A DNA stretch of 64,000 bases. Source: Escherichia phage slur16. The position numbers and the translations under genes are program-made. Positions 8,674 to 63,876 of the stretch are shown here, piece after piece; the stretch's first letter is position 1; each line of letters opens with the position of its first letter. The stretch lies in sequence record NC_028248.1. One strand, written 5' to 3'. The notes under the pieces are model-generated. The model was given only the letters and a program-made list of their open reading frames with translations. It ran no database searches and had not been told where the DNA came from.

Positions 8674-8683
8674 CACGTTTTTG

Positions 8684-9724
8684 ATGTTGACATCTGTTGA
8701 GACAATTGATACGATTTCTTCACTTACAGAGCACGAGAGACGACTCATGAATCTTGAAAAATATTATACACCAGAAGAGTTAGAGCGCTTGCTCAAAAAA
8801 TATAGACGCAAACAGAATAACGCACGGAAACGAGATATAGAGTTCGACCTGTCATGGGAAGAATACCTCCTATTTGGTAAAAAACTTTTAGGGGAGGGGG
8901 TATGCGACTACACCCTTATACCTTTCGACATGCACACAGATGAAAACGGACTGGGAAATCCTTTCTACCCATCTCTGGAGCGGATAGATGATGAAGGTCC
9001 TTACGCAATTGATAATTGTTGTGTGGTAGGGTTGAGGTGCAATGCTCTGAAAGACTGTCTGGTAGATAAAAAGACTGCAATCCTGATTAAAGACAAAACT
9101 GATCGAAAAATTGTCCAGCAGATGATGCTCCACCTGAGCGAAGAGCGTATGGAGAAATTGAAAGGTGATTATACTTTTGAAGATTTCATCTTGCAATACG
9201 GGACAGAAGAAGATAAACTAGCACTATTTGACGAAGAGGAGGAAGATATGTCACCAATGCAGGACTTTAAAAATTTCATGGCTGATCGTGCAGCCAACAA
9301 ACACATTTCAGACATCGTAAACGAGACTGTGGCAGAAGAAATTGAAGAACAGAACTCTGAAGAGGAAAAAGATCCTCAGGAGGTCGAAGAGGAGATTGCA
9401 GAAGAAGTTCCTGCACTGCCTGATGATGTTGAGATTGCTAAGGCTTACACTTTCTATTGTCAAACGTTCTACGATGCAGGTATGAAAGTTGATCTGTCGT
9501 TCAGCCAATTTAAGAGTTCGTATATTCGCAAATGCTGTGCTTTAACTGGTGAACGTCTCGGAGCTGGACTTAAACCACTGTTGGTGACCGACTGGAATAA
9601 AGGTTTCACTAAAGGAAACTTTATGGTAGTATCTCCAATTATGGAGAAAGCTATGACAGATCTTATGAAGACCACCCGCATGACAATGACCGAGTTGGCA
9701 GGTATTTTCAAACACGTTAAATAA
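8684..9724 (+). CDS. hypothetical protein with acidic region
   Basis: ORF 8681..9724 (track start is TTG; first ATG at 8684; alternative start at 8747 downstream of the candidate promoter). Contains a Glu-rich stretch. Confidence 0.5.
   Translation: MLTSVETIDTISSLTEHERRLMNLEKYYTPEELERLLKKYRRKQNNARKRDIEFDLSWEEYLLFGKKLLGEGVCDYTLIPFDMHTDENGLGNPFYPSLERIDDEGPYAIDNCCVVGLRCNALKDCLVDKKTAILIKDKTDRKIVQQMMLHLSEERMEKLKGDYTFEDFILQYGTEEDKLALFDEEEEDMSPMQDFKNFMADRAANKHISDIVNETVAEEIEEQNSEEEKDPQEVEEEIAEEVPALPDDVEIAKAYTFYCQTFYDAGMKVDLSFSQFKSSYIRKCCALTGERLGAGLKPLLVTDWNKGFTKGNFMVVSPIMEKAMTDLMKTTRMTMTELAGIFKHVK
8687..8715 (+). promoter_or_regulatory. sigma70-like promoter candidate for the rightward block
   Basis: -35 TTGACA (8687-8692), 17-nt spacer, -10 TACGAT (8710-8715). 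It lies inside the called N-terminus of the next ORF, so the true start may be the ATG at 8747. Confidence 0.35.
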
Positions 9725-13328: not shown

Positions 13329-13604
13329 ATGACGAAAGAAGAGGCCGACGTATTAGATTTTGCACTAGAGGCTACGCAGGAGGCTTTGGTGTTAGCTTGG
13401 AAAATGAACCAGCGTGCTGCAGAATGCAACCGCCGCATCAATGAGATTCTGGGCATGTCTATGTATGATTTTACCATGCATGCCGGAGAGATTCCTGAAT
13501 TAACTGCAGAGATGAATGATCTTGACAATAAAATTAATATCATTCTGAAGACAGCAGAAACAACTCACCAAACCGCCCGTAAATTTATCAACGAGAAGGT
13601 GTGA
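13329..13604 (+). CDS. hypothetical protein
   Basis: 91-aa ORF, helical-looking composition. Confidence 0.4.
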   Translation: MTKEEADVLDFALEATQEALVLAWKMNQRAAECNRRINEILGMSMYDFTMHAGEIPELTAEMNDLDNKINIILKTAETTHQTARKFINEKV

Positions 13605-24345: not shown

Positions 24346-24431
24346 GTTCTCCTGAGAAAATTCCTTAGGACTATTTTAACACTTTAGAGAACAAAATGCA
24401 AGAACGGAGTCCTTTCCGTTCTGACCTTTGT

Positions 24432-28482: not shown

Positions 28483-29168
28483 TAACCCTCCTGTCTAGTT
28501 GCGTTTACTGTAATACTTTCACAATAAATGGTTGTGGTGTCCCAATCAGGTCTTACGTCAGGAACATACAGCAAAGTAGCCAGCCCACCAACTCCGAATT
28601 GGTTTTCTTCCCACACTGATCCGAAGCCAAGAGCTGTATGGTCCCCTTCAAAACCAAAAGCTTGCCCTTGCGATTCTGTAAGACGCAAATGACAAGGCAA
28701 TGGTAGCATATCTAAGATCTGATCGATAGACTGCAATATGTCAAAGCAAGTTTTTCTAATATTTATGTCAAACCTGAAGTTGTCTCCTTTCCACGTATCG
28801 AAATTGTTTCTTCCGAACAATTGTCGCAAGGTGGAGATGACATCTTCGCGAGTCCCGCCCCTTGATGCTGCGGCCTGCTGAATAATTAGTGTGGCACGAA
28901 AATCAGCATCTGAAAGTCCATTCCTAAGAATACCAAGTTGATTACCAACTTCGTCAAGGTATCTTCCGCTGGCATTGTTAAGCAATCTTCCTTCAGCCAA
29001 ACCTACCAGCATCTTATCAACATCCTCCAACCTTTTAAGGTACACGGTTAAGAATGTGACCAAATTAACCTTCTCAGCCAGAAAATCTCCAGGCAGGTAG
29101 TCAAGACCTCCCTGAACAAAATCTGGCAGAGTGTGGATGTGGTTAACATCCGACTTAATCTCTGCCAT
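28482..29168 (-). CDS. putative baseplate/tail protein
   Basis: 228-aa ORF, start overlaps the stop of the upstream gene; position only. Confidence 0.4.
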   Translation of the reverse strand: MAEIKSDVNHIHTLPDFVQGGLDYLPGDFLAEKVNLVTFLTVYLKRLEDVDKMLVGLAEGRLLNNASGRYLDEVGNQLGILRNGLSDADFRATLIIQQAAASRGGTREDVISTLRQLFGRNNFDTWKGDNFRFDINIRKTCFDILQSIDQILDMLPLPCHLRLTESQGQAFGFEGDHTALGFGSVWEENQFGVGGLATLLYVPDVRPDWDTTTIYCESITVNATRQEG

Positions 29169-29179
29169 ATCTCGCCGCC

Positions 29180-30670
29180 TTAAATAGTTTGTTGGAAAGT
29201 TATATTACTTTCGTCGAGGTCAAACACCTCGGTCATGTTCGCAACAATATCGTTTGTAGTGTAAGCTTCATCAGAAGCTCCTACTGGTTTAACTTGAATT
29301 ACCAGTCTATTAAATCTGCCTATTGATACAGCAGCAGATGCAGCGCCGACCAATTGGATATTATACAACGTATCTGCAACATCCAGTCCGTTAACAACCT
29401 GCAAAAGAGCCTCTACAATGGCATCTTTTTCGGTTGTGGAAAGTGCGGCACCGGAGTAGGTAATTCTTACATCTAGGCGGTAGGTATTTGCCTTGGAGTA
29501 ATAAATTCTTTCAGTTTGACCATCAGATGTAGTGACATCGTAGAAAATATTACCATAAGTCCTGTTAGTACAGGCTATAGTTTGGTAAAGTGCTTGGCAA
29601 ATGTCCTCCGTTGCACCACCAAACACAACCACTTGGAACTTGTAAGGAGGTATACCTTTAGCATCAGTTTTATCGGTGTTGTTGGAGAACACCCTCACTT
29701 TCTCAACACCTTTCACCTCGCTTACAGCGCTAAGGATTGCAGGACGGGTAGCCTTAGATGTTAACTGTTTTGTGCTGGAAGCTCTTAAGCGATACTCTGA
29801 GTCTTTCTCAACATCCCTGCCCTCATTGAATCTTTCTCGGTTGGTAAGCTTGATAAATCCACTGGGAGTAGGTGACATTGTTGTCACGGTTTCTGCCTCT
29901 CTTGACAGCTCACCAGCCTCGTTAGCGATAACATCCAGGGTGATAGTTCTTTCCCCTACAATCGGGGATACTCTGAAATCTACTCTACTATTAAGTCCAA
30001 CTTGATCAAGATTCGAATTGTACCCTATCCACAACGTTCCTGTCAACATATCGACCTGAATCAAATCGTCGTTCAACAGGGTTGTATTATCGACAATGAA
30101 TTGCTTAATCTCTCCGTAAAAGCTTGGCAAATCAGAAGAGTCCAGAGACTTATCTGTTAAAACCAGACTTTTTGTTTTGATACTTCCATCTGTCTGGTTG
30201 GTAATTTGAAAGTTGTATTTACCAATCCTTAGGTCTGGAGCATTTATTCTGTGAGCAATAAGATTCCCTGCTACTTGCACATCGTTGCTAAGAACAAAGT
30301 TGCCACTGTCCAGCGTATAAGTTTTGGAATCATAAATCATATTGTACGGCACAGTTGTGTTGATTGTCAACTGGCAGGTACCTGATGATTTAGAACGGCC
30401 TCTTCGGTAAATACCCTGTCTTCCAAGAAGCTCATCCAGGTAAATACCTTCTGCCCCATACAGCGTCTGTGATGCGTATACAGATGCTGCCATAAGAATA
30501 AGTTGATACTCTCGCTCGTTGAAGATAGTGGTCAGCTTATCTGCAACGGAGTTACTCTGTACGTTGAAGTTTTCGCCAAAAGCACGGATCAGGCTTTGCT
30601 TAGTTTCAACGATTAGGTCATTTAGGGTTGGTATAACGAAACCAGCCTCTGTCAATCCATACTTAGCCAC
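29180..30670 (-). CDS. putative baseplate wedge-type protein
   Basis: 496-aa ORF, first gene after a promoter candidate; GGAGG RBS. Function from position and size only. Confidence 0.4.
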   Translation of the reverse strand: MAKYGLTEAGFVIPTLNDLIVETKQSLIRAFGENFNVQSNSVADKLTTIFNEREYQLILMAASVYASQTLYGAEGIYLDELLGRQGIYRRGRSKSSGTCQLTINTTVPYNMIYDSKTYTLDSGNFVLSNDVQVAGNLIAHRINAPDLRIGKYNFQITNQTDGSIKTKSLVLTDKSLDSSDLPSFYGEIKQFIVDNTTLLNDDLIQVDMLTGTLWIGYNSNLDQVGLNSRVDFRVSPIVGERTITLDVIANEAGELSREAETVTTMSPTPSGFIKLTNRERFNEGRDVEKDSEYRLRASSTKQLTSKATRPAILSAVSEVKGVEKVRVFSNNTDKTDAKGIPPYKFQVVVFGGATEDICQALYQTIACTNRTYGNIFYDVTTSDGQTERIYYSKANTYRLDVRITYSGAALSTTEKDAIVEALLQVVNGLDVADTLYNIQLVGAASAAVSIGRFNRLVIQVKPVGASDEAYTTNDIVANMTEVFDLDESNITFQQTI

Positions 30671-30703
30671 GTCACTCCTCCGGTATGAAAATCTCTACAA
30701 GGT

Positions 30704-30732
30704 ATTTTACCAAATTTTGTAACAATAGTCAA
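30704..30732 (-). promoter_or_regulatory. sigma70-like promoter with extended -10
   Basis: Minus strand: -35 TTGACT (30732..30727), 17-nt spacer ending in TGG, -10 TAAAAT (30709..30704); 34 nt upstream of the ATG at 30670. Confidence 0.55.
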
Positions 30733-30740
30733 TCTGAGCA

Positions 30741-30766
30741 TAAAAATAAACCCCGCCGAAGCGGGG
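30741..30766 (-). terminator. rho-independent terminator
   Basis: CCCCGC-cgaa-GCGGGG hairpin, followed on the minus transcript by UUUAUUUUU; directly downstream of the 1279-aa gene. Confidence 0.6.
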
Positions 30767-30775
30767 CTTTAAAGG

Positions 30776-33700
30776 TTAGTCGTGAGACTCGTTCCAAGGT
30801 CCTTGGAAACTAGAGTTAGAACGGCTTACCACAACAGTAGGACAGGATATTGCGACCCCTGTTACAGAAGACGTTGACCATGGTGTGTAGATTTCAACAA
30901 CAATATCTATGGTTTGTTCACCAAGACCCGTTATCCCTACCGCACACATGCCGTTGTTGTCGTTTCCGTACTTCTTACCTGCAAGGATTTGATGTCCGGC
31001 TATCCAAACGTTAAGCTGGGAGCTGGCAAGAGTACCATTCAGTTTAAAGAAGAATGTTACGTTCTTACCCTGACCTGAAACGTTATCTACGTATCTCCAC
31101 CTCCAACGGCAAACCCTTTGCTGGGAGTTATATACTGGAGCACAATCTCCGTAAGTCCTGTGTGCAACAATTGCACCTTCGAACTGGTTAGCGCGGATAA
31201 CAGAAGCTTCTACACGACCACGGAAGGTACCTCCGGTTGCATCTATGGTGCCTCTAAAGCTACCATTATTGGCATAAACATCCCCACGGAAGGTACCACT
31301 AGTGGCGTTAACTGCCCCTGTGAAGTTACCAGAACTGGCGTTGATGTTGCCTTTCACCCACACATCCATAAATTGGGCGTGCCCGTTCTTGTTAATATAC
31401 CAACCGTATTTATGGTACCCGTTGCCATCGTAGTTGTTTGACGAAATTTCTTGTGCAATCTTGGCAGAGGAGATCGTGCCATTCTCTATAAAAGCGTCTT
31501 TCAAGAACGCTTGGTTGTTCTTGATTGCGAAAGCAAGGGTTGCTGTTCCATTGCCAGGGTTGTATACCGCAAAATTGTTTGCGCTAACCATGAAGTAGGA
31601 TTGAACTTGGCCTCCAGACCCTTCCATCCCCAACTGAATACCTGCAACATATTTATTCCCTGCGGAGTCTACCTGTATTTTTGTGCCCCATTGAGCATTT
31701 ACTTTACCCTCTAAGTCGGTTACAGCCTTAGATGTTGTAGCTACTGCAGCCCTGATCTCAGACACATCCCCAACATCATCAATGATCTCCTGCTTAGCAA
31801 CAGCAAGTTCTTGACGAATAGCTGACGCTGTGCCGTTGATAAGGTCCACAGTGGCTTTATTGGTATCGGAAATTGTAGCATCCAGCGCTGTTTTTGTGGA
31901 GGTCAGTTTTCCATCCAAAGCATCAATCGCTTGCTTGTTGGTAGAAATCTCCCCACGTGCAGAAGTTATCTGCTCTGACAGTGCAGATGTTTTCTGATTC
32001 AACAAGTCAGTGGTGGCCTTGTTGGTATTGGCAATCAAGGTGTTGAGGTCAGTTTTTGCGGTAGTTATCTTGCCGTCAAGGGTGGTATAGTTTTTAGATA
32101 CCGTCGCGTTTGTCTGACTAATCTTTTGATCCAGAGTTTCAGATGTCCTGTTCAAAAGATCCACAGTGGCCTGGTTAGTGCTCAAGATGCTTGCGTCAAG
32201 TTCTGTTCTCTGAGTATTGATCTTACCATCCAGAGTTTTATCTCCGGCTAAATACCCGCTCTCAACTCCCTCTATCTGCTCTACCAGCTCACCTTTGGCG
32301 GCAACCAATTTCTCATCTAAAGCCTCTGTCTTTTTGTTCAGAAGATCAGTAGTTGCTTTATTGGTTGTCTCAATCAGGGATGCCAATCTTCCACTTTCAG
32401 TGTTCAGATCGTTGGTGAACTTGTTCTGTGCAGCAACAAGTTTCCTATCCAGCGCTGTGATATTGCCATTGACATCCTCAAACTTCTGAGTTGTCTCTGT
32501 AACTACCGCACCTATTCTGTCTCCAAGTTGCTGGAATGCCTCATCTACCCTACCATCCATGTACCTGTTAAGTTCTGTGACACGATTTTCAACCTCTTCA
32601 ATAGAGGAATCCAAAGTGCTCATCAACTCTTTATAAGTTTCTGTCTTTTTGAATTCAGCATCTATCTGAGGCATCAAATCCTCAATAGAGGTGTAGCAGC
32701 GTGCAGCGCATTCTACAAACTGAGAACTACCAAAAGCGTTTGTGGTTCGAATATACCAATAATAAACCTTATCGTTCTGCAGACCTTCAGATGTCCAAGT
32801 TGAACCAACACCCATACGGGTGGCGTTTGAAGTAACGGTTGCATCACTGGTGTCGGGCAACCTTGTCATACCGGATGTCCAAAAGTCATACTGGGTGCTA
32901 ACACTTGCTAAATCCCTACTATGCGGAATCAAGGTGATAGCAAAGTATCCTTGCTTAACCTCTACAGAAACCGGAGCTTCAGGTGCCTGAATGTTAAACT
33001 CACAATACGCTTCTGGAGATACACCACCTTTATAAGATGTTGCAACAACAGTGGCTGTGTAGGAACCTTTAGTCAGACCTTCAACACGGACAAACTGCTC
33101 AACTGTCTGTGCTGTCCAAACAATCTCTCCGTTCTTTCTTACCTGCACAATATTTTGAGCGTAAGTCCCAACGTTGTCCCAGGCCAAAACACCGTGAGTT
33201 ACTTCCCCAGCTTGGAGAACGGAGTATCTGAAGTTTTGCGGCTGAGCTACACCGGACGGGGATATCGGAATATCTACATCGCCGGAATCCGGAAGTTGCC
33301 CTGTGGCATCATTCCACTCTTTAGCATCTTGACGAAGTTTTACCTTGACACCGCCCTTTTTGGTGAACTCCCATTCAAGAACCCTCATTTCTTGGCCCAC
33401 GATACCAATACTTGGGAGGTCCATTGTAACATAACGGCCAGGCTTAAATTTAAAACCTCGCATATTGCAGGTGACTTCAATAATCCTGCCAGCTCTAGCA
33501 CGTCTTAGGAAGATTGCAGAAACACGCTGAGCTTGATAAGGACTGGTAACAAAGCGATAATCTATATCGATTATCTTTCTTTCTCCATCCTTCTCTATCC
33601 ACTCTGGGACAAACACTGATGGAAAATCTGTTTCAGAATACCCTTTGGTCGGGCTAGTGAATCTGCCAGTTATTGTGTTGGATCTTTTGTCAAATGAGGC

Positions 33701-34615
33701 TTCCGGATAGATCTTAACCTCACCACAGACACAGTCCTCACTAAGTGTCATTGTTGCTGGGCCATAGTATGCACCAACCAGCAAACCATACTTACCAGCA
33801 ACATAACTAAGATCTGCACCGCAAGCTTTCAGCATTTCTGCCATAATACTTGCTGGGGCCTCATCCATGTCAAACTCACCGTTAATGGTGTAACGGCGCT
33901 CACTGGTTCCGTCTGCGTTTTTTACCGCCTCGTCGCATATGTTGGCAGCCTCCTTGAAGGACTCCCAGTTGATGGTTTCGTCAGGACATTTAAGGTACGT
34001 TCTTAAATAGTCTAGGATCACCAAGGCAGCGTTATTGGTGTACACCTCTTTACTGATACGAGGATCATAGCATTTTTTACCAATCTTGACGAGTGTAACG
34101 TTTGGCAACCCAAAAGGAAACTTGTTAGGGTCAAACCTGAAGCTGGCACGTAGCCAACTGATCCCTCTACCTATCATGTCAGGTGACCATGATGGGCAGT
34201 GTGTACCCATGAAAGGATCAGATGTTTTTCTGTCGTTATGTAGCTCCCACGATACCAGATCTCCATACGAGGAAATAGGATTACCGTCGATAAGTATATC
34301 TTCTATACCTTCCAGAGGGTGATTGGCAAGAACAATAGCACAATGGAGGGTTCTGTCGCTATCCTGCTCCAAAAACGCAAGCAATCCAGATGTGCGTGTC
34401 TTTCCATACACTACAGAGCAAGGTGCAGCAGAAGATCTGAGAAGCTTTTGTCTATCTTGCTGACTTCTGTAAGATTTGTTGCCCTCAAAAATCTTATCCA
34501 AAGTTCTGGTGGTCACAGTGTTCAGGCTGTCAGCCAGAGCTGCCTTGGATGCGTTCCAGTCATAACTTGAAGATCTTGCAGAAGCAACGATGTTATCAAT
34601 CATTGCAATTGGCAT
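30776..34615 (-). CDS. tail fibre / host-specificity-type protein with coiled-coil tandem repeats
   Basis: 1279 aa; N-terminal region followed by a fibronectin-III-like segment, then tandem ~50-60-aa repeats (TNKATTDLLN / TNQATVDLLN / TNKATVDLIN), then a Gly-rich C-terminal domain. Confidence 0.6.
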   Translation of the reverse strand: MPIAMIDNIVASARSSSYDWNASKAALADSLNTVTTRTLDKIFEGNKSYRSQQDRQKLLRSSAAPCSVVYGKTRTSGLLAFLEQDSDRTLHCAIVLANHPLEGIEDILIDGNPISSYGDLVSWELHNDRKTSDPFMGTHCPSWSPDMIGRGISWLRASFRFDPNKFPFGLPNVTLVKIGKKCYDPRISKEVYTNNAALVILDYLRTYLKCPDETINWESFKEAANICDEAVKNADGTSERRYTINGEFDMDEAPASIMAEMLKACGADLSYVAGKYGLLVGAYYGPATMTLSEDCVCGEVKIYPEASFDKRSNTITGRFTSPTKGYSETDFPSVFVPEWIEKDGERKIIDIDYRFVTSPYQAQRVSAIFLRRARAGRIIEVTCNMRGFKFKPGRYVTMDLPSIGIVGQEMRVLEWEFTKKGGVKVKLRQDAKEWNDATGQLPDSGDVDIPISPSGVAQPQNFRYSVLQAGEVTHGVLAWDNVGTYAQNIVQVRKNGEIVWTAQTVEQFVRVEGLTKGSYTATVVATSYKGGVSPEAYCEFNIQAPEAPVSVEVKQGYFAITLIPHSRDLASVSTQYDFWTSGMTRLPDTSDATVTSNATRMGVGSTWTSEGLQNDKVYYWYIRTTNAFGSSQFVECAARCYTSIEDLMPQIDAEFKKTETYKELMSTLDSSIEEVENRVTELNRYMDGRVDEAFQQLGDRIGAVVTETTQKFEDVNGNITALDRKLVAAQNKFTNDLNTESGRLASLIETTNKATTDLLNKKTEALDEKLVAAKGELVEQIEGVESGYLAGDKTLDGKINTQRTELDASILSTNQATVDLLNRTSETLDQKISQTNATVSKNYTTLDGKITTAKTDLNTLIANTNKATTDLLNQKTSALSEQITSARGEISTNKQAIDALDGKLTSTKTALDATISDTNKATVDLINGTASAIRQELAVAKQEIIDDVGDVSEIRAAVATTSKAVTDLEGKVNAQWGTKIQVDSAGNKYVAGIQLGMEGSGGQVQSYFMVSANNFAVYNPGNGTATLAFAIKNNQAFLKDAFIENGTISSAKIAQEISSNNYDGNGYHKYGWYINKNGHAQFMDVWVKGNINASSGNFTGAVNATSGTFRGDVYANNGSFRGTIDATGGTFRGRVEASVIRANQFEGAIVAHRTYGDCAPVYNSQQRVCRWRWRYVDNVSGQGKNVTFFFKLNGTLASSQLNVWIAGHQILAGKKYGNDNNGMCAVGITGLGEQTIDIVVEIYTPWSTSSVTGVAISCPTVVVSRSNSSFQGPWNESHD
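31840..32360 (-). repeat. imperfect in-frame tandem repeats (~155-185 bp period) within the fibre gene
   Basis: Plus-strand motif cagtggc(c/t)tt(g/a)ttggt recurs near 31851, 32011, 32161 and 32341, matching the repeated peptide motif. Confidence 0.5.
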
Positions 34616-36214: not shown

Positions 36215-36243
36215 ATTTTACCAGATTTTGAGTTAATACGCAA
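36215..36243 (-). promoter_or_regulatory. sigma70-like promoter with extended -10
   Basis: Minus strand: -35 TTGCGT (36243..36238), 17-nt spacer ending in TGG, -10 TAAAAT (36220..36215). Confidence 0.5.
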
Positions 36244-36245
36244 TA

Positions 36246-36275
36246 CAAACAAAAAGCCCCCGCCGAAGCGAGGGC
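36246..36275 (-). terminator. rho-independent terminator
   Basis: GC-rich hairpin GCCCCCGCCGAAGCGAGGGC with one mismatch, followed on the minus transcript by UUUUUGUUUG. Confidence 0.5.
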
Positions 36276-47116: not shown

Positions 47117-47145
47117 ATTGTATCATAAAATAGCCGTTTTTACAA
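47117..47145 (-). promoter_or_regulatory. sigma70-like promoter candidate
   Basis: Minus strand: -35 TTGTAA (47145..47140), 17-nt spacer, -10 TACAAT (47122..47117); follows the terminator downstream of the tape measure gene. Confidence 0.35.
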
Positions 47146-47149
47146 CACC

Positions 47150-47176
47150 GATAAAATAAAGGGGGCCGGAGCCCCC
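47150..47176 (-). terminator. rho-independent terminator
   Basis: GGGGGC-cgga-GCCCCC hairpin, followed on the minus transcript by UUUAUUUUAU; 14 nt downstream of the tape measure stop. Confidence 0.6.
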
Positions 47177-47189
47177 TATGTGCTGTTTA

Positions 47190-49526: not shown

Positions 49527-49535
49527 GGTTTCCTC

Positions 49536-49575
49536 ATAATAAAAAGGGCCAGATCCCAGAAAAGGAATCCGGCCC
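49536..49575 (-). terminator. hairpin plus U-tract (attenuator/terminator candidate)
   Basis: Imperfect GGGCC...GGCCC hairpin, followed on the minus transcript by UUUUUAUUAUG just before the tape measure RBS. Confidence 0.35.
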
Positions 49576-49580
49576 TTAGA

Positions 49581-49829
49581 TTATCCTCTCCTGCGCTTAG
49601 CTTTCGCAGCAGCTGCGGCAGCCTTCTGCTCCCGCTCCATTTCCCTGTTTTGGACGGTATCTAGGAATTCTTCGATATCAAGATACTCACAGAGCTTCAG
49701 GAAATACGCCATATCTGCAAGATTTAGCGATTCAAAATTTTCCCCTTTGAAATTCTTGAGCACCCTGCACCAAAGAAAGTCGAACCAATTGAGTGAACTG
49801 TTCTTGGCTGCCCACTCACTGGCCCTCAC
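49581..49829 (-). CDS. small protein, possible tail assembly chaperone
   Basis: 82 aa, GTG start; between tube and tape measure genes. Confidence 0.35.
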   Translation of the reverse strand: MRASEWAAKNSSLNWFDFLWCRVLKNFKGENFESLNLADMAYFLKLCEYLDIEEFLDTVQNREMEREQKAAAAAAKAKRRRG

Positions 49830-49840
49830 AACAACCTTGC

Positions 49841-50341: not shown

Positions 50342-50386
50342 TGCACCATATTTGTGTATTTTACCATGATTATGGTGCATTGTCAA
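50342..50386 (-). promoter_or_regulatory. sigma70-like extended -10 promoter flanked by a 9-bp inverted repeat
   Basis: Minus strand: -35 TTGACA (50386..50381), 17-nt spacer ending in TGG, -10 TAAAAT (50363..50358). Inverted repeat TGCACCATA (50342-50350) / TATGGTGCA (50371-50379) is centred on the -10. Confidence 0.55.
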
Positions 50387-50426: not shown

Positions 50427-50460
50427 TAAAAGCAAAAAGCCCCACCCGAAGGTGAGGCTT
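50427..50460 (-). terminator. rho-independent terminator candidate
   Basis: AGCCCCACC-cgaa-GGTGAGGCT hairpin with internal bubble, followed on the minus transcript by UUUUUGCUUUU; downstream of the tube gene. Confidence 0.45.
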
Positions 50461-53873: not shown

Positions 53874-53914
53874 TAATGTATTTTACCACAAAGATGCATC
53901 AAAAGCAACAATTT

Positions 53915-57947: not shown

Positions 57948-58522
57948 TATTCATTGCCCTCTTCTACAACACTGATCCCGAAGTTTACGTTGGTAATTTC
58001 ACCAGTTTCTTCATCAACATTACCTGTTGCCTGAATGCTTAGGCCACCAACAATGCCAGCCTTCTTAGCTTCCCATAATTCAGGATTATTGTATTTAACT
58101 TTAGCAACCCAAGAGCCAGCCTTGATGACCTGCTCAGTGCCAATTACTACAACATCAAACTCTTCTTGAATCCACGTCTTTTCAATAGTGAAAGCATCTG
58201 TAGAGGTCAAGTGAAAAAGGTTTTCAGAAACTAGGCCTGCGGCGTATGCTGCGTCCCAGTTATCTTTAGCCTTTTTGATGGTGTCTTTACTCATCCACTC
58301 ACCGTGAGCATCTTTAGTGTCAGGCTCGTAGATGATTTCGTAGGAAATCATTTCTTCCTGTGGCATCTTATTCCCCATGTGGATTATTTTATCACGCCAA
58401 AGGAGGTTTTGCAACCCCCTGTGTTGATAATTTTTAATTTTCCATGTTGGATATGGAATTATCTCTGGTTGATGACATCTTAGAAGTGCCGTTGCCAGTG
58501 GATCCTGCAGCCATTCCATCAC
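57947..58522 (-). CDS. putative prohead protease or head maturation protein
   Basis: 191-aa ORF between portal and scaffold, overlapping the portal 3' end; no catalytic motif recognised. Confidence 0.3.
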   Translation of the reverse strand: MMEWLQDPLATALLRCHQPEIIPYPTWKIKNYQHRGLQNLLWRDKIIHMGNKMPQEEMISYEIIYEPDTKDAHGEWMSKDTIKKAKDNWDAAYAAGLVSENLFHLTSTDAFTIEKTWIQEEFDVVVIGTEQVIKAGSWVAKVKYNNPELWEAKKAGIVGGLSIQATGNVDEETGEITNVNFGISVVEEGNE

Positions 58523-60009: not shown

Positions 60010-60043
60010 AGTATAACAAAATAGCCCTCGTGTTAGAGGGCTA
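60010..60043 (-). terminator. hairpin plus U-tract after the terminase
   Basis: TAGCCCTC-gtgtta-GAGGGCTA hairpin, followed on the minus transcript by UUUUGUUAUACUGUUUUG. Confidence 0.45.
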
Positions 60044-60092
60044 GTATCTCCGATTACTCTATTCTACCACATCTAATTAAGATTGGCAACAC

Positions 60093-61214: not shown

Positions 61215-61533
61215 CGTTTATGTTCGGGCAAGGTCGCTAGTCTTGCCCCGCCATTTTCAGGCAGCTGCATGTCTCCATGCAGACCAGACTATATCTTATA
61301 AGCGACAACAACCGCTTATCCTCCCGTTTCGAATCGCTTGATTCTACGTCTTTCGACTAGTCGTTGAACGTTCATCCTCTCGGATGCTTCGCTGCGGATT
61401 ATCTAAATTAACACACTGTTACCATACCTTCGATCTCTCTTCGAAGCCTCTATCATGTTACCATGACAGGTTGGTGGTATTAATAGTAAAGATTTCCCCG
61501 CAATTAGGGAGGTTTTACGAGAGCTACAAATTA
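61215..61533 (-). other. ~319-nt non-coding intervening sequence splitting terL; candidate self-splicing group I intron
   Basis: Exon 1 frame hits TAA right after the Walker B codons (..TGC TTC GAT GAG GGT | TAA); no ORF in the insert; hairpin-rich sequence. Proposed 5' splice after U at 61534 and 3' splice after G at 61215 restore the frame (..VCFDEG|TQFEWEQ..). Confidence 0.5.
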
Positions 61534-61959
61534 ACCCTCATCGAAGCAAACCATGGTGTACTCAAGCCCTTGATGGTTAAGCTTATCTTGTACATACTCC
61601 ATGTGGCAGTATTTTACAACAGCTCCCTTTTTGCTTCTATCCCACTTGCCAGTGTTCGGATCAAACCGTGGAAAAATGAACTTATGATCCTTCTCTCTGA
61701 ACTTTGGCTTAATGTTTTCAGGCAGATCACTATAAATAGCTACCGCTTTAGGCCATAGTCCACCCTCACCTTCCAACTGCGGGGTTGTTCTTCGGAACAT
61801 AACCACAGAGCTGTGGGGGTCATCAATAATTTTAAGTGGCATCAATTGCAAGAGGAACGACTTGCCAGACCCTGCGGCACCGCCGATTACCAAAATATCT
61901 GCATCGTTTTCGAGGATCATCTTCTGCTTTTCAGAACACGGTCCGTAAATCTTAGACAT
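61534..61959 (-). CDS. terL: terminase large subunit, N-terminal ATPase part; putative exon 1
   Basis: Walker A VIGGAAGSGKSFL and Walker B TMVCFDE, with a stop immediately after the DE(G). Confidence 0.65.
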
Positions 61960-63062: not shown

Positions 63063-63139
63063 TGGTCTCCACGGAGTGATTCGAACACTCGACCTCCTGA
63101 TCCCAAATCAGGCGCTCTACCAAGCTGAGCTACGCGGAG
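63063..63139 (-). tRNA. tRNA-Pro (anticodon UGG)
   Basis: Hand-folded cloverleaf: acceptor CTCCGCG/CGTGGAG, anticodon loop TTTGGGA, T-loop TTCGAAT, encoded CCA. Confidence 0.8.
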
Positions 63140-63150
63140 TATTTATTATT

Positions 63151-63225
63151 TGGTGGCCCTGGGTGGAATTGAACCACCGTCTGGCGATTATGAGTCGCTT
63201 GCTTGAACCTTCCAGCTACAGGGCC
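63151..63225 (-). tRNA. tRNA-Met (anticodon CAU; elongator or Ile2-type not distinguished)
   Basis: Acceptor GGCCCTG/CAGGGCC, anticodon loop CTCATAA, T-arm GGTGG-TTCAATT-CCACC, encoded CCA. Confidence 0.75.
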
Positions 63226-63226
63226 A

Positions 63227-63302
63227 TGGTGCTGATGGCAGGACTTGAACCTGCAACCTATTGATTACAAATCAATTGCACTACCAATTGTGCTACATCA
63301 GC
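63227..63302 (-). tRNA. tRNA-Thr (anticodon UGU)
   Basis: Acceptor GCTGATG/CATCAGC, D-stem GCAC/GTGC, anticodon arm ATTGA-TTTGTAA-TCAAT, T-arm GCAGG-TTCAAGT-CCTGC, encoded CCA. Confidence 0.8.
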
Positions 63303-63308
63303 AAAAAA

Positions 63309-63407
63309 GGTGCTAGGTGATGGAATCGAACCACCTATGTATTCAACGACTACCTCGTCTATTTTCAGGATTAAAAATCCTCGCCCTTGCCAAAGGGCTT
63401 ACCTAGC
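63309..63407 (-). tRNA. atypical 99-nt tRNA-like gene (anticodon candidate UUU, oversized ~30-nt variable region)
   Basis: Perfect 7-bp acceptor GCTAGGT/ACCTAGC, D-arm GCCC-TTTGGCAA-GGGC, T-arm GGTGG-TTCGATT-CCATC; anticodon arm only 4 bp (AGGA/TCCT) around loop TTTTTAA; 30 nt between anticodon and T arms; 3' end ACC-U, so CCA not fully encoded. Confidence 0.45.
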
Positions 63408-63505
63408 TCAGTATGTTGACCATGTTGCTAGTCGGCGATGACGACTGTAACATTTGATAATCCGGTTCTGCTTCCGGCTTTCGCTTAATTACAAGGTCAA
63501 CAATA

Positions 63506-63596
63506 TGGCTGAGGGTAATGGAATCGAACCATCATCGAGTCATCCTCAACGGGACGGTTTTCAAGACCGCTTGAGCACCATTGCTCCCTACCCTCA
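63506..63596 (-). tRNA. tRNA-Ser (anticodon UGA), type II
   Basis: Acceptor TGAGGGT/ACCCTCA, anticodon arm GCGGT-CTTGAAA-ACCGT, ~19-nt variable arm, T-arm GATGG-TTCGATT-CCATT, encoded CCA; 91 nt. Confidence 0.75.
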
Positions 63597-63710
63597 TTTA
63601 TAAACAATACTGATAATGACACTGATTTTCGAGCAGTTAGTGACTAGTATAAACGACGATAAATATCAATGCCATTATCTGTATGATTTATGCATTTAAA
63701 ACTATAAATT

Positions 63711-63797
63711 TGGTGGGGAGTGGTGGAGTCGAACCACCCGAGTCGTAATGACAATAGATTTACAGTCTACACCGCTACCTCTACGGGATAACTCCCC
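63711..63797 (-). tRNA. tRNA-Tyr (anticodon GUA), type II
   Basis: Acceptor GGGGAGT/ACTCCCC, anticodon arm GTAGA-CTGTAAA-TCTAT, long variable arm, T-arm GGTGG-TTCGACT-CCACC, encoded CCA; 87 nt. Confidence 0.75.
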
Positions 63798-63801
63798 AAT
63801 T

Positions 63802-63876
63802 TGGCACCCCGTACTGGACTCGAACCAGTGTCAACGGCTTAGAAGGCCGCTGCTTTATCCACTAAGCTAACAGGGC
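63802..63876 (-). tRNA. tRNA-Arg (anticodon UCU)
   Basis: Acceptor GCCCTGT/ACGGGGT with two G-U pairs, anticodon arm GCGGC-CTTCTAA-GCCGT, T-arm ACTGG-TTCGAGT-CCAGT, encoded CCA. Confidence 0.7.

Follow-up and report, generated by a model that had tools for sequence, protein, structure and literature searches.

Site 1, the junction at 30704-30766, is probably an intrinsic terminator coupled to a sigma-70 extended -10 promoter that restarts transcription, and one of at least eight copies of this module in the late unit. Terminator-promoter pairs within phage late operons are routine. The junction is an ordinary one and had already been published as a prediction in 2013. We analyzed its anatomy, its recurrence along the genome, its conservation in related phages, and the promoter class to which it may belong. 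The eight sites provide exact targets if the transcripts of a Vequintavirus are to be mapped for the first time; phages of this group are applied in therapy and to type E. coli O157. A search of the literature for transcriptomes or transcription start site maps of Vequintavirinae found nothing relevant.

Anatomy of the junction and recurrence of the motif

The window, that is, the whole 64,000-nt stretch of DNA analyzed, corresponds to positions 45771-109770 of the slur12 record (LN881735.1; Vequintavirus, rV5-like) in reverse complement, and window positions 29000-33000 were 100% identical to it. Gene calls were taken from this identical record and from the rV5 annotation. The late (structural) genes are encoded by the (-) strand, on which the sites were therefore read. 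The coordinates are summarized in Table 1.

Table 1 Features of the terminator-promoter junctions and further motif members in the window.
Feature	Coordinates	Strand	Remarks
Upstream gene, large tail-fibre protein (rV5 gp37 homologue)	30776..34615	(-)	slur12/rV5 annotation
Site 1 intrinsic terminator, 9-bp stem and UUCG tetraloop, AAGCCCCGC-UUCG-GCGGGGUUU	30748..30769	(-)	
Site 1 terminator U-tract UUUAUUUUUAU	30737..30747	(-)	about -50 to -40 of the downstream promoter, own count
Site 1 -35 hexamer TTGACT, 5/6 to consensus, 17-bp spacer	30727..30732	(-)	
Site 1 extended -10, TGG+TAAAAT (TG at -15/-14), then A at -6 (30703)	30704..30712	(-)	
Site 1 transcription start, predicted, 6-8 nt past -10	30696..30698	(-)	inferred
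Shine-Dalgarno GGAGGAG of the baseplate-J gene	30675..30681	(-)	sequence
Downstream gene, baseplate J-like protein (rV5 gp36 homologue), GTG start at 30670	29180..30670	(-)	slur12/rV5 annotation
Site 2 intrinsic terminator (rV5 t041), -16.9 kcal/mol, then UUUUUGUUUG	36256..36275	(-)	
Site 2 promoter TTGCGT-N14-TGGTAAAAT (rV5 P040)	36215..36243	(-)	gene start 36183
Site 3 intrinsic terminator (rV5 t052), -21.4 kcal/mol, z = -5.9, then U-tract	50437..50460	(-)	
Site 3 promoter TTGACA-N14-TGGTAAAAT (rV5 P051)	50358..50386	(-)	gene start 50314
Further member TTGCAT-N14-TGTTAAAAT (rV5 P030)	24373..24401	(-)	
Further member TTGTAA-N14-TGATACAAT	47117..47145	(-)	just past terminator 47160-47177 (rV5 t049), -16.0 kcal/mol
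Further member TTGCTT-N14-TGGTAAAAT (rV5 P056)	53880..53908	(-)	no preceding terminator
Further member TTGCAA-N14-TGATAAAAT	58386..58414	(-)	weak hairpin overlapping -35
Further member TTGCCA-N14-TGGTAGAAT (rV5 P064)	60061..60089	(-)	

At site 1, the terminator stem begins 6 nt after the stop codon of the tail-fibre gene. Its stem-loop has a folding energy of -16.5 kcal/mol (z = -3.4 vs shuffles) and is also annotated as a terminator in the record of the related phage HdK5. The promoter in full reads TTGACT-N14-TGGTAAAAT (30732-30704, (-) strand), and its hexamer TAAAAT matches TATAAT at 5/6 positions. In slur12, the base 7 nt past this -10 is T, preceded by G and followed by A. A strong terminator directly before a promoter at 30704-30766 had been claimed in the original prediction, and the UUCG hairpin with its U-tract agrees with it. 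The near-consensus -35 and extended -10 described there ahead of the next tail gene were likewise found, as TTGACT, a 17-bp spacer, and TGG+TAAAAT before the GTG of the baseplate-J gene.

The predicted recurrence of the element at 36215-36243 and 50358-50386, each past a hairpin, was confirmed for both sites. The site 2 terminator is annotated in the HdK5 record as well, and the -35 of this site, TTGCGT, matches the consensus at merely 4/6 positions. The site 3 promoter lies about 50 nt downstream of its hairpin. All three sites have a GC-rich stem-loop followed by a U-rich tract past the stop codon, as in intrinsic terminators, with at least 8 U within the next 11 nt; the distance from stop codon to stem is 6-7 nt at sites 1 and 2 and 16 nt at site 3. 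The promoter elements have TG at -15/-14 and a hexamer with T-12, A-11, and T-7, as in sigma-70 extended -10 promoters, and the -35, for which a spacing of 16-18 bp is expected, stands at 17 bp from the -10 at sites 1, 2, and 3.

The -10 of site 3 is also bracketed by a perfect 9-bp inverted repeat (TGCACCATA at 50342-50350 and TATGGTGCA at 50371-50379, 20 nt apart). The repeat is operator-like and may have arisen by chance; nothing similar was seen at sites 1 and 2.

We searched for the composite pattern TTG-N17-TGNTANAAT (TTG-N17-TGnTAnAAT). The window contained 8 matches against 0.26 expected, an enrichment of about 30-fold, and none of 100 shuffled sequences reached 8. TG and TTG are present at all 8 window sites, both being part of the search pattern. 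All 8 matches lie on the (-) strand and fall between genes; only about 5-7% of the late region is intergenic. A start codon follows each match at 20-45 nt. The search of the whole 136.9-kb genome, which had been proposed as a check, returned 10 matches against 0.8 expected, all of them on the strand that encodes the genes and 9 within the late unit. Thus, three instances were an underestimate, as the window alone holds eight. The idea of a repeated operon-boundary architecture in the tail module was supported with respect to boundary, orientation, enrichment, and conservation, and its restriction to the tail module was not, as the head/packaging part of the late unit carries the element too.

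Of the eight members, five follow a clear terminator hairpin and one a weak hairpin; another has no hairpin, and the remaining member precedes one. A hairpin at 24401-24422 (-12.8 kcal/mol) abuts the -35 of the member at 24373-24401. The member at 47117-47145 is located downstream of the gene called tape measure in a related phage, and the orthologous junction is present in Hena1 and F2M1E; an orthologous site of 58386-58414 was found in Hena1. At least five more terminator-like hairpins of the late unit have no promoter after them, and the pairing of terminator and promoter is therefore frequent but not obligatory.

The order is reversed at 60061-60089, ahead of the gene that follows the terminase, where a hairpin (60022-60043, -14 kcal/mol) and a U-tract lie about 18 nt downstream of the element. 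Located in the 5' leader, this hairpin could act as an attenuator or stabilise the 5' end of the mRNA; alternatively, it could be the upstream gene's terminator, in overlap with the promoter.

A generic sigma-70 scan of 20 kb (25-45 kb) gave 32 matches against 34 expected; a generic sigma-70/terminator scan is uninformative alone, as it was not enriched over shuffles. An Rfam scan of the junctions matched no RNA family at any of them. TTGACA-type promoters with a variable -10 are concentrated in the early/middle units (51 sense vs 3 antisense), and those in intergenic positions of the structural region are limited to sites 1 and 3. A fifth exact TGGTAAAAT on the (-) strand is present at 13468-13476, within the (+) early gene block. 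It lacks both a TTG at -35 and a downstream gene and has most likely arisen by chance.

The rV5 genome, about 98-99% identical to that of slur12, has been analyzed for promoters previously. Kropinski et al. (2013, Virol J 10:76, Table S4; PMC3606486) listed P036, P040, and P051 as predicted rV5 promoters at the same positions, with P036 and P051 in the sigma-70 list and all three among eight 'putative late promoters'. The late motif was given as 'TggTAaAAtA', with eight copies upstream of late genes 27-66, and the terminator list includes t041 and t052 (PMC3606486). The 46-nt P036 of the table is identical to window positions 30697-30742. P051, which is annotated in the rV5 GenBank record, is identical over the listed sequence, and P040 shows 2 differing bases, neither of them within the motif. 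The table does not contain the site 1 terminator or the 58386 site, and the better match, TTGTAA-N14-TGATACAAT, lies a few bases downstream of its P048. Conservation across genera, motif counts, and statistics are added to the rV5 prediction here. In the Certrevirus literature, subfamily-wide conservation is not described for the late genes.

Conservation of the junction in Vequintavirinae

Homologues of the baseplate-J protein with 50-60% identity were found in Mydovirus (KpS8), Seunavirus (GEC_vB_MG), Henunavirus (Hena1), and Certrevirus (F2M1E). In all four genera, the 90-110-nt spacer ahead of the baseplate-J gene consists of a GC-rich hairpin, a T-tract, and then TGnTAAAATA. With Vequintavirus included, the junction at this gene is common to five genera. 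The late region of Hena1 contains about 8 such elements, several of them directly past terminators.

We searched IMG/VR with an alignment of baseplate-J proteins, which returned 37 loci. The element was carried by 13 distinct lineages with 50-99% protein identity. The 13-lineage alignment was anchored on the element. T-15, G-14, T-12, A-11, and T-7 were prescribed by the search pattern. Among the bases left free, A-8 was present in 13/13 lineages, A-10, A-9, and A-6 in 12/13 each, and T-17 in 11/13. A stands 7 nt past the -10 hexamer, at the expected start, in 11 of the 13 lineages. TT at -35/-34 was kept in 13/13 and 12/13, respectively, and G-33 in 7/13. The spacer and leader sequences showed no conservation among the 13 lineages.

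A hairpin of -11 to -20 kcal/mol with a T-tract ending 20-59 nt upstream of TG was found in 12 of the 13 lineages. The stems are built from different sequences (CCCCGC/GCGGGG, CACCC/GGGTG, GGGGC/GCCCC, GGGAGCC/GGCTCCC, and others), indicating that the hairpin structure is kept while its sequence turns over. In Henunavirus, Certrevirus, and one other lineage (L008, L009, L023, and L028-L036), the stem ends 20-25 nt from TG. The terminator T-tract thus occupies the -35 position, so that some bases belong to both signals. In several genera, the T-tract overlaps with -35/-34, and the conservation of TT there may partly be a by-product of the terminator.

The orthologue of site 3 in Henunavirus and Certrevirus keeps the terminator and has no clear TGnTAAAAT, and the site 3 promoter is therefore not conserved at the subfamily level. 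The baseplate-J junction was absent from Aeromonas Plateaulakevirus, phAPEC8-like Phapecoctavirus, and Felix O1-like phages. In these distant relatives, the baseplate-J gene is packed tightly against its neighbour or is preceded by a different spacer.

Promoter class, proposed mechanism, and alternatives

In sigma-70, region 3.0 reads TG at -15/-14 and T-17, and region 2 reads T-12, A-11, and T-7. The extended -10 class is marked by TG together with T at -17 and depends little on the -35, in agreement with the elements described here (PMC3950348). The E. coli sigma-70 extended -10 consensus (TRTGnTATAAT; Mitchell et al. 2003, as cited in PMC3950348) shares with them TG, T-17, T-12/A-11/T-7, a 17-bp spacer, a -35 that varies, and, as predicted for the phage, a start about 7 nt further on, and differs from them in the hexamer, which is TAAAAT in the phage instead of TATAAT, and in the conserved A at -6. 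As a start site, the conserved A 7 nt past the -10 is only suggestive. To our knowledge, A at -6 is not a recognised sigma-70 determinant, and it counts against the sigma-70 reading. A further point against this reading is that an unmodified host polymerase acting on near-consensus promoters would leave late expression unexplained.

From the anatomy, enrichment, placement, and deep conservation observed above, we infer initiation, termination, the form of the polymerase, and late timing as follows. The intrinsic terminator would end or attenuate transcripts from the upstream tail-fibre gene. About 15 bp on, the extended -10 promoter would restart transcription, approximately 25-28 nt ahead of the baseplate-J gene. 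The reader is most likely the host sigma-70 RNA polymerase, with sigma region 2 and region 3.0 contacting TGnTAAAAT and with a -35 that would be helpful, not essential. The late unit would be split into sub-operons whose expression is independent of upstream read-through, and each structural-gene block may have its own expression level.

The authors of the rV5 study likened the late motif to the T4 late promoter TATAAATA and not to the extended -10 class (PMC3606486). As they suggested from this likeness, TGGTAAAATA could be a phage-specific late promoter, read by the host core polymerase with a phage sigma-like or co-activator protein, as in the case of T4 gp55/gp33/gp45, and its resemblance to sigma-70 promoters would be partial or coincidental. 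T4 late promoters (TATAAATA; gp55, gp33, and gp45) are similar in having an AT-rich, -10-like element upstream of structural genes with the core AAATA. The near-complete confinement of the motif to the late unit, the conservation of A at -6 beyond the needs of sigma-70, the degenerate -35 in several genera, and the lack of a known function for most early phage proteins all favour such a promoter. However, T4 late promoters need neither TG nor a -35, unlike the motif here. TTG stands at the exact 17-bp spacing at 8/8 sites, with the qualification that TTG is in the search pattern, and the invariant TG and T-17 are hallmarks of recognition by sigma-70 region 3.0. T4 gp55 is without sigma region 3.0. 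A search with T4 gp55 (AF158101) by phmmer and tblastn against all slur12 reading frames found no homologue (best E = 1.4-2.4), at a level where a very remote homologue is possible. Homologues of gp33 and gp45 are absent too according to the rV5 paper (PMC3606486). Neither a sigma factor nor a transcription factor appears in the gene table of rV5. TATAAATA gave 3 matches against 2.1 expected in slur12, all on the (+) strand, opposite the late genes. Conservation throughout the subfamily also argues for the sigma-70 extended -10 class over T4-like late promoters, and we consider a phage-specific late promoter rather improbable. A T4-type late system proper was rejected, with TATAAATA at chance level and on the wrong strand and a gp55 homologue not detected.

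The element might not be a promoter at all and could instead be a binding site for a regulatory protein or a processing or stability signal in a read-through transcript. The perfect 9-bp inverted repeat around the site 3 element would fit a protein-binding site, and the member at 60061-60089 precedes its hairpin instead of following it. However, the inverted repeat is found at site 3 only, the conserved positions are those that define a -10 with a TG extension, and the start codon follows at a short, variable distance that includes the Shine-Dalgarno sequence. Such a function is very unlikely in our view. It could also be argued that AT-rich intergenic spacers past U-tracts resemble promoters by chance, in line with generic sigma-70 matches being no commoner than in shuffled sequence. 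The roughly 30-fold enrichment of the specific motif, with its complete bias in strand and position, speaks against this, and the persistence of the element across genera with flanks diverged beyond alignment contradicts it; a chance origin is thus hardly credible.

For late timing under the sigma-70 extended -10 reading, the closest mechanistic precedent is the Thermus phage P23-45. In this phage, the middle and late promoters are of the extended -10 type, and gp39 displaces sigma region 4, shutting off -10/-35 promoters (PMC3950348). P23-45 gp39 also suppresses intrinsic termination (PMC3351154), a feature with no evident counterpart in slur12. P23-45 resembles the slur12 phage in being a lytic phage without its own late sigma factor whose late genes are on extended -10 promoters. 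The host promoters are of the -10/-35 class, as are the early promoters of the slur12 phage, and a contrast between early and late promoter classes is seen in the slur12 phage too. Unlike in P23-45, no gp39-like or AsiA-like protein was identified in rV5-like phages, and the late promoters here retain a recognisable TTG at -35.

A broader scheme can be imagined for Vequintavirinae as a whole. The structural genes would be on a -35-independent TGnTAAAATA class fused to intrinsic terminators, with the terminator T-tract at the -35/UP position, and the early genes on consensus TTGACA promoters, and the switch between them would be made by a phage protein that disables sigma-70 region 4, like T4 AsiA or P23-45 gp39. 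We regard this scheme as unlikely, albeit conceivable. If true, rV5-like coliphages would allow a switch of promoter class that needs no phage sigma factor to be studied in a tractable E. coli model. Independently of this scheme, assignment to the extended -10 class reframes the question of late-gene timing in phages that have no recognisable transcription factor.

Ten early proteins were scanned against Pfam and PHROG in search of a transcription factor, which yielded an Srd-like protein only. This protein, the homologue of rV5 gp11 (8681-9724, (+) strand), had its best PHROG match in a family labelled 'HNH endonuclease' and no match in Pfam. It also matched the PHROG families 'Srd anti-sigma factor' (4.7e-9) and 'decoy of host sigma70' (1.5e-14). 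Judged by these profile matches, the putative Srd-like gp11 homologue would be the only takeover-type candidate in the window.

Other features of the window and related records

A group I catalytic intron (Rfam RF00028, 84 bits, E = 5.5e-20) was detected at 61265-61543 (-). It is located in the 388-nt gap between two slur12 coding sequences, both annotated as 'Terminase-like family protein', and a self-splicing intron therefore probably interrupts the gene for the terminase large subunit. A sequence of similar appearance is present in a 543-nt gap of Aeromonas phage phiA009 (L010 151-693).

In slur12, the 314 nt at 49527-49840 (-), which separate the tape-measure gene from the gene that follows site 3, are unannotated. 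The rV5 counterpart is ORF50, which overlaps ORF51, an arrangement typical of a tail-assembly chaperone produced by programmed frameshifting.

Among the GenBank records with about 98-99% identity over 4 kb were 18 named 'Campylobacter phage' (host C. jejuni; e.g. MG065647.1 and MG065646.1), which suggests that these records are mislabelled or contaminated.

Six tRNA genes are clustered at 63066-63876 (-), at the upstream end of the late unit. The one at 63311-63407 is unusually long and low-scoring and is given as 'tRNA-???' in slur12.
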